Shown here: piece after piece, positions 50,255-54,002 of the stretch
How positions within the stretch are numbered: position 1 is the first letter of the stretch
Layout of the letters: the number at the start of each line of letters is the position of its first letter
Assembly: GCF_050920415.1 (NCBI RefSeq)
Contig: NZ_CP169309.1
Direction: 5' to 3' (one strand)
From: Escherichia coli
Lineage (GTDB): Bacteria; Pseudomonadota; Gammaproteobacteria; Enterobacterales; Enterobacteriaceae
DNA length: 64,000 nucleotides
Notes under the pieces: model-generated
Told to the model about the DNA's origin: nothing
The model's database searches: none
The model's input: the letters and a program-made list of their open reading frames with translations, nothing else
Translations under genes and position numbers: made by a program

Positions 50255-50542
50255 ATGAACGAAGTTGTAAATTCAGGCGTGATGAACATTGCGTCTTTGG
50301 TTGTATCGGTGGTGGTTCTTCTTATCGGGCTCATCTTGTGGTTTTTTATCAATCGTGCCAGTTCACGAACTAACGAACAGATTGAACTGCTTGAGGCGTT
50401 GCTGGATCAGCAAAAACGTCAAAATGCACTGTTACGTCGTTTGTGCGAAGCAAACGAACCTGAGAAAGAAGATAAAAAGACCGTTGAGAGTCAAAAATCG
50501 GTTGAAGACGAAGATATTATTCGTCTGGTCGCCGAACGGTAA
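50255..50542 (+). CDS. yebO: Small membrane protein YebO
   Basis: 95 aa with an N-terminal TM segment. Confidence 0.75.
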   Translation: MNEVVNSGVMNIASLVVSVVVLLIGLILWFFINRASSRTNEQIELLEALLDQQKRQNALLRRLCEANEPEKEDKKTVESQKSVEDEDIIRLVAER

Positions 50543-50557
50543 TCCTTCCTCAATCTT

Positions 50558-50585
50558 GAGTAACCCCGTCGTTGAAGGGTTACTC
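50558..50585 (+). terminator. Rho-independent terminator after yebO
   Basis: Hairpin gagtaaccc-gtcgttgaa-gggttactc. Confidence 0.5.
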
Positions 50586-51211
50586 AATTCATCCTGATTA
50601 TACGCACTGTCATGGTGCAACTGCTTCAAATTAAAACTCTGGTCTGACTTCAAATAATTATCATATTATTTATTTGCGTAACGGGATATCAGAAAAAGAT
50701 ATTTAGCCCATTAATTTATTAGGATGTTTACATCGGATTTGTGATTAAGCGTGTTATTATTTATTAGCGAAACGTTTCTCTCTTGATTTTTTTGCGCATT
50801 CATCAATTTTTCTTATTTTAAATTTACAATACCTTTGGCGATTGACTTCTCTTTGGGGTGATTGATAGCCGTTAACTGACTGTTTTATGAGAAAAAGTGA
50901 TATAACTTTTTATTCATTGCATAGCAGAAAATGTGATATTGCACGCACTATGTAATAACTTCTCCCATTGGCCTGGAACAACTGAACTTATTGAACTATG
51001 TTAGAAAATACGTCAGTTTAAGTATCTGCCTGAACTGGCAAGGTTAAGCACAATGATATATCGGCGCGTATTCCGTTGCATAAGTGTGCAAAAAAAGTGG
51101 AAGACGTATCGAGATTTGTGCGTCTGATCGAGACATGTTTAAAAATGGCTTGCCATAATTAACGTTGTATGTGATAACAGATTTCGGGTTAAACGAGGTA
51201 CAGTTCTGTTT

Positions 51212-51355
51212 ATGTGTGGCATTTTCAGTAAAGAAGTCCTGAGTAAACACGTTGACGTTGAATACCGCTTCTCTGCCGAGCCTTATATTGGTGCCTCATG
51301 CAGTAATGTGTCAGTTTTATCTATGTTATGCCTGCGGGCGAAGAAAACAATCTAA
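51212..51355 (+). CDS. yobF: Small protein YobF (co-transcribed with cspC)
   Basis: Translation [47 protein letters not shown] (47 aa), directly upstream of cspC. Confidence 0.75.
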
Positions 51356-51367
51356 GGAATTTTTCAA

Positions 51368-51577
51368 ATGGCAAAGATTAAAGGTCAGGTTAAGTGGTTC
51401 AACGAGTCTAAAGGTTTTGGCTTCATTACTCCGGCTGATGGCAGCAAAGACGTGTTCGTACACTTCTCCGCTATCCAGGGTAATGGCTTCAAAACTCTGG
51501 CTGAAGGTCAGAACGTTGAGTTCGAAATTCAGGACGGCCAGAAAGGTCCGGCAGCTGTTAACGTAACAGCTATCTGA
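51368..51577 (+). CDS. cspC: Cold-shock-domain protein CspC
   Basis: 69 aa with RNP motifs KGFGFI and VFVHF. Confidence 0.95.
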
Positions 51578-51623
51578 TCGAATCCACTGATCTGAAGTGT
51601 GAATACGCTTCAATCTCGCTATA

Positions 51624-51649
51624 AAGCCTCGTCGAATGCGAGGCTTTTT
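51624..51649 (+). terminator. Rho-independent terminator after cspC
   Basis: Hairpin aagcctcg-tcgaatg-cgaggctt followed by TTTT. Confidence 0.65.
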
Positions 51650-51742
51650 ACTTTGCTTTATCTTCGCTCCTGGCATTCGGATATTTGCCCGCCGCGTGAT
51701 TCGCGTTACACTTGCGGCCTTTAGTATCCTGCCGGAGTTGTC

Positions 51743-53119: not shown

Positions 53120-53330
53120 ACGTCCTGACCGGGGTATCCATAAAACACACCATCGCCCCCAGCAAACATGCATACATGAACAACAAACCGCGATGATTTT
53201 CGCGTTCATGCAGGCATAGCGATTGATGTGCATATGGTCTCGCCTGACTGAAAGTGTTCAGTCCGTACGTGCCACGTTTTGCAACGAGTATGTTGACACG
53301 TACATTTCCGGAATCTGGAAATCGGCTACT
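53120..53330 (-). promoter_or_regulatory. mntP 5' leader, expected to contain the yybP-ykoY Mn2+ riboswitch
   Basis: Long GC-structured untranslated leader between mntP and yobD; the riboswitch assignment is from prior knowledge of mntP regulation, and its boundaries were not verified. Confidence 0.4.
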
Positions 53331-53543
53331 CCCCAAATGAGGGCGCAACATTAACATATTTTTAGAATATAAAACAACTGTTGGGATATATTATTTCAGC
53401 AGTTAATTGATAACGATTTTCATTTAGATTTATATATCAATGAAACGTTAAAATAAATAACAAATAAGGGATGGGATAATATAGCCTAAGCTATGTCTGA
53501 TTATTTAAAATACAGCAAACATAGCTTTGGCTAAATTCATAAC

Positions 53544-54002
53544 TTATTGAGTGGAAACAAGAAGTTTATAAATTTTCTCCAGGTCGTCGATATTTCGAAC
53601 GCGGATTAACAGCCGGCGCTGTTCTAATTGCATCACCAACACGCCATCTTCAGACAAGTTCATCGCTTTAATTCGACTATATTCAATCCAGACATTGGCG
53701 AAGAAAAAACCTTTTTGTTTAAAGATGATCTTCGGAACGCGGATCCAGAATATATAAAAACCCATCAGAGCCAGTGCACTTAATAACCATGTCGTTATTT
53801 GCGCGCCATGATTCGTGACGTTGTTATAGATAAGAATGACAATCAATCCGACGAAGATAACGCTATCGATGCGACCACGCCGGAGCAAAGGAATTGCCAG
53901 CAGAGTGGGGCCGTTGCGGCGGGGCATGATGAACTGATCGTAGATCGCGAAGGTCAGGAGTGCGGCGATAAAAAGAATCAGTACCAGGTCCGTGATTGTC
54001 AT
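53544..54002 (-). CDS. yobD: Inner membrane protein YobD (DUF986)
   Basis: 152 aa ORF recognised as YobD. Confidence 0.85.

Follow-up and report, generated by a model that had tools for sequence, protein, structure and literature searches.

The 669-bp intergenic gap between yebO and the yobF-cspC operon of Escherichia coli (positions 50543-51211 of the 64,000-nt stretch of contig NZ_CP169309.1 analyzed here, hereafter the window) is not one leader but probably a composite control region, with multiple parts joined to the tail of yebO, and this is the reading of the gap as a whole that we favor. Read from yebO toward yobF, it would comprise the yebO terminator hairpin; about 175 bp of fast-evolving AT-rich DNA, reported to be bound by H-NS, in the slot that a gene for a metallo-beta-lactamase-fold protein occupies elsewhere; a conserved RbsR-type operator of the LacI family with an adjoining conserved block; a CRP-like site; a conserved distal promoter (TGGAAC-17-cTATGTT) that we infer to act mainly in stationary phase, from ~51009; a conserved motif at which much of the distal transcription would end (51087); two overlapping, almost invariant proximal promoters with starts at ~51164 and ~51185; and a 48-nt leader in which the Shine-Dalgarno (SD) sequence would lie within a weak, U-rich hairpin and is the pairing site of OxyS and CyaR. 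In this arrangement, the proximal promoters would supply most of the yobF-cspC mRNA, and the distal promoter would add a leader of ~203 nt, a large share of which would be cut short ~77 nt before the proximal start to give a short RNA. Most of the biology of the gap is already known or ordinary, and what the present analysis adds is modest: the distal promoter, the 3' end at 51087, and the operator of the RbsR type.

The gap extends from the yebO stop codon, which ends at 50542, to the yobF ATG at 51212. Its GC content was 35.3%, versus 50.2% in the window, and only 0.17% of all 669-bp segments were equally AT-rich, every one of which overlapped the gap, making it the most AT-rich stretch of its size in the 64 kb. 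It was also the largest intergenic spacing between non-prophage genes in the annotated 50 kb. Of 5426 complete E. coli genomes, 5423 contained the same 669 bp with an identity of 95-100%, which was 100% in strain MFDS1022581 and 98.4% in K-12. No feature was annotated in the gap in RefSeq, including the curated K-12 MG1655 record (1907592-1908260) and that of W3110, and no open reading frame (ORF) of more than 31 codons lay wholly within it. An earlier description made from the DNA letters (the sequence-only reading) was therefore right in seeing here an AT-rich, unannotated spacer of ~670 bp without large ORFs, and in naming the genes behind it yobF and cspC. In W3110, Y75_RS09615 is missing from the series of locus tags between yebO and yobF, a hint that some feature was once called there and later withdrawn.

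Comparative evidence for several distinct parts came from a scan for YebO relatives, which identified 80 Enterobacteriaceae loci, in 77 of which, the window included, yobF-cspC followed yebO. Across these 77 loci the yebO-yobF distance fell into two classes, one of 590-760 bp and one of 1455-1582 bp. In the 32 loci of the latter class (the long form), a gene for a 331-335-aa metallo-beta-lactamase-fold hydrolase (PF12706) came directly after yebO, and ~520 bp of non-coding DNA was retained upstream of yobF even where this gene was present. Alignment of the upstream DNA revealed conservation islands, designated A to D, within a poorly conserved background, and a block of ~100 nt next to yobF that was almost invariant across the Enterobacteriaceae (Table 1).

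The two ends of the gap are the best defined of its parts. At the yebO end, a hairpin was predicted (-15.5 kcal/mol, z = -2.5), and Term-seq placed the primary yebO 3' end at MG1655 1908212/1908213, corresponding to window 50590-50591, in each of the three growth conditions. The gap therefore starts with ~49 nt that belong to yebO. The hairpin was absent from the list of a terminator scan because it is not followed by a T-run. At the yobF end, the proximal promoter region was nearly invariant in the 77 loci and was also found by the consensus scan; specifically, GATAAC was promoter-like in all 77 and the CATAAT region in 39-54. The pair TTGCCA-17-GATAAC is listed as the yobF-cspC promoter by Shimada (2014), in which several RNA polymerase (RpoD) peaks are also placed in this "670 bp spacer." Additionally, two sigma-70 promoters, yobFp1 and yobFp2, are cited from databases in a 2026 paper on ageing colonies, and an RpoN holoenzyme site that represses the operon has been assigned to the yebO-yobF spacer. 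The primer of a Salmonella yobF::sfgfp fusion, said to carry the yobF 5' untranslated region (UTR), begins with GTTGTATGTGATAAC, which corresponds to window 51164 and yields a 48-nt leader. The best-supported starts thus lie ~27-48 nt before the ATG, at ~51185 and ~51164. The sequence-only reading had taken the spacer for a long, regulated 5' UTR; the part of that claim implying a single ~670-nt leader fails, given the yebO 3' end and these starts, and the part concerning regulation stands for the 48-nt leader, which is a post-transcriptional control point for OxyS and CyaR with a weak hairpin predicted to occlude the SD.

Repression of yobF by OxyS and CyaR, which pair at its ribosome-binding site, has been published, and our analyses recovered the same site. 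Nucleotides 14-27 of OxyS are complementary to the invariant GGGTTAAACGAGGT (51186-51199). When the whole gap was examined in 22-nt local windows, the best duplex with OxyS was at 51179-51200 (-22.8 kcal/mol), and that with CyaR was in the same place (-18.2 kcal/mol); global duplexfold runs with the full-length small RNAs (sRNAs) were uninformative. This site is already known, is confined to the last 30 nt of the gap, and differs in nothing from the known system.

In the same leader, AUUUCG (51181-51186) can pair with CGAGGU (51194-51199), forming a hairpin of six pairs, U-A and U-G among them, that covers the SD. Like thermometers of the fourU type, it pairs a U-rich strand with the SD. Unlike them, it has just six pairs, a fold no more stable than shuffled sequence (z = 0.63), and no compensatory changes: among 48 distinct sequences, 93% of the pairing was kept, through changes on one side only, and this equaled the shuffle control. 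Compensatory changes are absent because the 3' arm is invariant. The heat-shock induction of yobF has been reported to be post-transcriptional, as cited in another paper, and the hairpin, as a predicted fold, is a candidate explanation for it. The SD is 13 nt from the ATG (51195-51214), which is unusually far, and a preprint presents yobF-cspC as an extreme case of the >100-fold variation in translation efficiency seen genome-wide, even within one operon.

The sequence-only reading had suggested a temperature-responsive leader; one of the cspA type was rejected for the gap. The cspA system (RF01766) offers parallels, in that cspC is a paralogous cold-shock-protein gene and heat induction of yobF is reportedly post-transcriptional, and with cspC included we recovered an RF01766 match (51192-51652, 135.7 bits) above the gathering score. 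Unlike in cspA, however, this match was carried by the cspC coding sequence, which lies outside the gap: an Rfam search of 50543-51367, from which cspC had been removed, returned nothing at E ≤ 10 except two chance matches to small nucleolar RNAs. A temperature-sensing leader of this type therefore does not appear to lie in the gap. Direct alignment of the cspA and yobF leaders gave no convincing similarity, and candidate RNA structures in the gap had z-scores from -1.05 to +0.63, with no stable fold among them.

Table 1. Positions of the yebO-yobF gap features and flanking genes in the window; the last row refers to two of the comparative loci.
Feature	Position	Strand	Elements and basis
yebO	50255-50542		
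yebO 3' UTR and terminator hairpin	50543-50591	+	Stem 50556-50566 / 50577-50587
Lineage-specific AT-rich filler, 30% GC	50592-50765 (~175 nt)		Alignable within Escherichia only
Conservation island A	50766-50822		Alignment of 77 loci
RbsR-type (LacI-family) palindromic operator-like site	50766-50781		AGCGAAACGTTTCTCT; ~440 nt upstream of yobF
Block beside the operator-like site, possible far-distal promoter	50782-50822	+	Family consensus TTGCC..TGTCATCA..TTTCATTATTTTGGTGCA
Conservation island B (block B) with CRP-like site	50906-50947		TGTGATATTGCACGCA (50932-50947); alignment of 77 loci
Conservation island C (block C), distal promoter candidate	50973-51010	+	-35 TGGAAC 50974-50979, 17-nt spacer, C + TATGTT 50997-51002; alignment of 77 loci
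Putative ~79-nt stationary-phase RNA or attenuated leader	51009-51087	+	3' end mapped, 5' end inferred
Conservation island D (motif D), containing the 51087 3' end	51078-51090		GCATAAnTGTGCA; alignment of 77 loci
Almost invariant block (~100 nt)	51113-51211		Alignment of 77 loci
Proximal promoter region	51113-51163	+	GAGACA (51130-51135)-18-TGcCATAAT (51151-51159)
Overlapping proximal promoter		+	TTGCCA (51150-51155)-17-GATAAC (51173-51178)
yobF 5' UTR, 48 nt	51164-51211	+	SD GAGG 51195-51198; OxyS/CyaR pairing site 51186-51199
yobF	51212-51355		
cspC	51368-51577		
Hydrolase gene of the long form, examples	L013 4308-5303; L026 4310-5317		30 other loci likewise

Further upstream, transcription also appears to begin and end within the gap. 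The Term-seq data of Adams et al. 2021 (PMC7815308) include an 'orphan' 3' end at MG1655 1907716(-), corresponding to window 51087, which is listed in the sheet for lysogeny broth (LB) at an optical density (OD) of 2.0 only, where it has 264,852 reads, compared with 46,490 for the yebO terminator and 3,055,420 for the cspC terminator. The authors also tabulate the 51087 end among 3' ends that precede ORFs, and entry into that table needs a transcription start site (TSS), determined by differential RNA-seq, as the first upstream feature and more than 20 nt away. A TSS must therefore lie in 50543-51066, and a longer leader and/or a short RNA must arise within the gap, so that to this extent the long leader and the unannotated sRNA anticipated by the sequence-only reading retain a basis. 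The end itself is not discussed in the main text of PMC7815308, nor is the RNA mentioned in the sRNA literature as far as that is searchable.

The best candidate for the required start was block C, in which conserved -35 and -10 hexamers stand at 17-nt spacing. TGGAAC-17-TATGTT scored 6.1 and was promoter-like at the aligned position in 64 of the 77 loci, with a predicted start at ~51009, 203 nt before the yobF ATG. Consensus promoter matches across the gap were no more frequent than in shuffles, and the sole conserved promoter on the minus strand was a weak one inside the invariant block. A C just upstream of the -10 element and AT-rich sequence after it, both present in block C, are features associated with sigma-S promoters. 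The distal promoter would probably fire mainly in stationary phase. For Salmonella, a published study tabulates the SalCom TSS as 1893683 and three transposon insertions, two of them (1893502 and 1893511) described as being in the 5' UTR and one (1893137) as being in cspC. Combined with the geometry of the locus, these coordinates place the TSS 181-390 nt before the ATG, a range in which 203 nt fits all of them, as do other values. Were the Salmonella TSS instead the start of the clone, at 48 nt from the ATG, the insertion tabulated for cspC would fall outside that gene.

The 51087 end lies 77 nt upstream of the proximal start, within motif D, which was nearly invariant in most of 69 alignable loci. 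No terminator-like site was detected anywhere in the gap by the terminator scan, and the sequence after 51087 is an A-tract. Both 4-bp hairpin registers of motif D were ~92-95% paired, no better than shuffled controls, and no covariation beyond sequence conservation was detected at the motif. With pairing equal to that of shuffles, the motif may act as RNA or as DNA. The 51087 end may come from attenuation, from processing, or from collision with polymerase parked on the proximal promoters. In the case of collision, a polymerase arriving from upstream would be halted at the edge of a promoter complex, estimated at about -55, with its 3' end near 51090. A deliberate stop at GCATAAnTGTGCA could be an attenuator read by CspC/CspE or a roadblock set by polymerase on the proximal promoters.

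Another reading of the same end is that it marks an independent gene for a stand-alone, trans-acting sRNA of stationary phase, which we consider quite unlikely. In its favor, the 3' end is abundant and specific to one condition and has a TSS upstream, the promoter-like block C and the motif at the 3' end are both conserved, and functional RNAs derived from 5' UTRs were found in the same study (PMC7815308). However, the RNA ending at 51087 has no hairpin followed by a U-tract, its fold was no better than shuffled sequence (z = 0.35), and its body (51011-51076) was only 31-48% identical to Salmonella and Citrobacter, with no conserved seed. Furthermore, it had no Rfam match and no K-12 annotation, and no mention in the searchable sRNA literature. 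Compared with the short RNAs ChiZ and IspZ, which Term-seq traced to 5' UTRs (PMC7815308), it is alike in being upstream of an ORF with a TSS upstream, and in its 'orphan' classification. Unlike that class, it is upstream of the main promoters instead of downstream of a sole promoter, it lacks a protecting stem, and it was seen at OD 2.0 only. Since its body is unconserved, unstructured, and without a terminator, an independent sRNA is the less likely option. Rather than regulating in trans, the short RNA more likely arises as a by-product or through attenuation. Term-seq also placed a strong 3' end within yobF, at 51324 (+) (MG1655 1907479), 44 nt before the cspC ATG, and insertions of the element IS1 in ageing colonies were at 1,907,482, 3 nt from it.

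Upstream of block C, island A begins with the palindrome AGCGAAACGTTTCTCT, which shared 15 of 16 bases with the rbsD operator of MG1655, AGCGAAACGTTTCGCT; the left half-site was perfect, and the CG at the center was also shared. GCGAAACGTTTC occurred exactly just once in the window, at this site, and by our own arithmetic a match this good would arise by chance ~0.05 times per genome. The 10-bp core, CGAAACGTTT, was exact in 70 of the 77 loci, in non-coding DNA, and lay 380-470 nt from the yobF ATG except in one locus, at 584 nt; it was absent in Klebsiella/Raoultella. The consensus operators of Cra and PurR each matched at 10 of 16 positions by hand count, a poorer fit than RbsR. Unlike the rbsD operator, which overlaps the promoter that it regulates, the yobF site is ~390 bp from the nearest well-supported start, and in most other genera its right half is GTTTTT or GTTTTG, unlike the rbsDACBK operator. 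We consider 50766-50781 to be a putative, conserved LacI-family operator of the RbsR type. RbsR is described as also controlling genes of nucleotide metabolism, and rbsR and cspC mutants were recovered in the same Salmonella screen.

The remainder of island A (50782-50822) is possibly a far-distal promoter, with candidate orientation and start. A promoter-like score of at least 5 was present at the aligned position (-10 near 50812-50814) in 45 of the 77 loci; E. coli, Salmonella, and Citrobacter have CTCTC in place of the -35-like TTGCC of other genera, and the hexamers that scored best in E. coli were weak. If this block were the principal start (~50826), the main transcript would have a 5' UTR of ~385 nt, and a LacI-family repressor together with early termination at 51087 would control it. 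Of the alternatives, this one comes nearest to the sequence-only reading. In its favor, the operator and its block are among the best-conserved distal elements, and the operator-ATG distance is nearly constant; the Salmonella coordinates permit it, and the Term-seq filter asks just for a TSS somewhere upstream in the gap. We regard it as unlikely, given the CTCTC that replaces TTGCC, the weak E. coli hexamers, and the poorly conserved sequence between the blocks, a 252-nt stretch of which was not unusually structured. Moreover, with a start 385 nt before the ATG, the transposon assigned to Salmonella cspC would lie just 5 nt within the gene.

Between islands A and C, block B contains TGTGATATTGCACGCA, the sole match in the gap to TGTGA-N6-TCACA at no more than two mismatches, and yobF is a predicted target in a CRP genomic SELEX (systematic evolution of ligands by exponential enrichment) study. 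Across the window, such matches were no commoner than chance. The sequence at 50932-50947 is a putative CRP site. Additional short elements may be further protein-binding sites: the palindrome GATATATC and motif TTTGTGAT (51054-51062 and 50737-50745), conserved in Escherichia, Salmonella, and Citrobacter only, and TGTGC, present at 51085 and again at 51117, 32 bp apart.

Taken as a functional unit within the composite region, these distal parts would constitute a second, condition-specific input to CspC, from a distal promoter (possibly dependent on sigma-S and CRP) below an RbsR-type operator, and stopped at GCATAAnTGTGCA. We offer this as a doubtful proposal. Several points weigh against the composite reading that we favor. 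The distal start at ~51009 is a prediction, and blocks A (~50826) and B (~50946) are also possible starts. The Salmonella coordinates are ambiguous, and one of the numbers may be a typo. A transcriptional reporter with upstream yobF DNA was silent in wild-type and phoQ-deleted cells in low Mg. The 51087 end, with neither terminator, stable hairpin, nor covariation, is unexplained in origin; RbsR binding is putative; and the CRP-like site is centered near -69 of the distal start, off the usual class I phasing.

If the proposal of a second input is true, an RNA chaperone that is recurrently lost in adaptation would have its level adjusted to growth phase and to the supply of sugars or nucleosides. 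CspC is abundant and modulates RpoS, PhoP-dependent virulence genes, and succinate use, and its gene is a hotspot for adaptive loss, both when E. coli colonies age and when Salmonella is put under selection. The transcriptional setting of its level is poorly described, and the distal promoter, the stop site, and the operator offer handles on it; elements of the gap might also explain the joint recovery of rbsR and cspC mutants. If the elements are inert, the region is a well-conserved promoter behind AT-rich filler.

The latter possibility, in its full form, views all of the gap but its final ~100 bp as a neutral, H-NS-bound, AT-rich scar of hydrolase-gene loss, in which spurious promoters yield noise transcripts such as that ending at 51087. 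Fast divergence agrees with this, as gap identity was just 74-78% within Escherichia species, and so does the shuffle-level frequency of consensus promoter matches. The filler (50592-50765) had identities of 0.23-0.56 per 25-nt bin to Salmonella and Citrobacter, and promoter-like matches inside it were not conserved. The spacer was flagged as H-NS-bound (Shimada 2014), and IS1 is found inside the gap in natural strains: in E. coli ABWA45 at ~50930-50940, and in E. coli strain 361 at 50609/50610, where the rest of the gap, yobF, cspC, rlmA, mntP, yobD, manXYZ, yoaE, and part of pdeD are missing. This IS1-mediated deletion echoes the adaptive cspC loss in ageing colonies. Nevertheless, we judge an inert spacer to be very unlikely, as discrete islands were conserved across long-diverged genera in a fixed order and at similar distances, with or without the hydrolase gene, and the ~520 bp upstream of yobF was retained despite that gene. 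Carriers of the hydrolase gene included Lelliottia, Kosakonia, Buttiauxella, Cedecea, Leclercia, Phytobacter, and some Enterobacter, and no trace of it was detected in Escherichia, Salmonella, Citrobacter, or Klebsiella. A remnant in the E. coli gap was rejected, the best tblastn E-value being 0.22.

Finally, a hidden small-protein gene, for which the sequence-only reading had proposed the gap as a candidate site, is exceedingly improbable: several ORFs of 12-31 codons are present, one of which (minus strand, 22 codons, 51013-51081) was intact in three other Escherichia species, but that ORF has no SD, none of at least 12 codons was intact in Salmonella or Citrobacter, one chance case aside, none combined intactness across genera with a ribosome-binding site, and the curated K-12 record, although it includes small proteins such as yobH and ysaE, has nothing in the gap.

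The gene neighborhood comprised kdgR, yobH, mgrB, yebO, yobF, cspC, rlmA, and mntP, and the NCBI pipeline labels cspC 'cspE' in two genomes, W3110 and that of the strain to which the window is identical. Elsewhere in the window, a yybP-ykoY Mn2+ riboswitch was located upstream of mntP (53246-53342, minus strand), with 41.9 bits, just under the Rfam gathering score of 45, in a match that omits most of the 3' half of the model (positions ~97-170). In the gap between mntP and yobD, an AT-rich inverted repeat (53467-53548) matched several microRNA precursor models on both strands (E 0.02-0.9) and is probably just a long hairpin. Adjoining pphA, a prophage (~14000-35400) encoded terminase, head, tail, and baseplate proteins and had truncated tail-fibre and recombinase genes.

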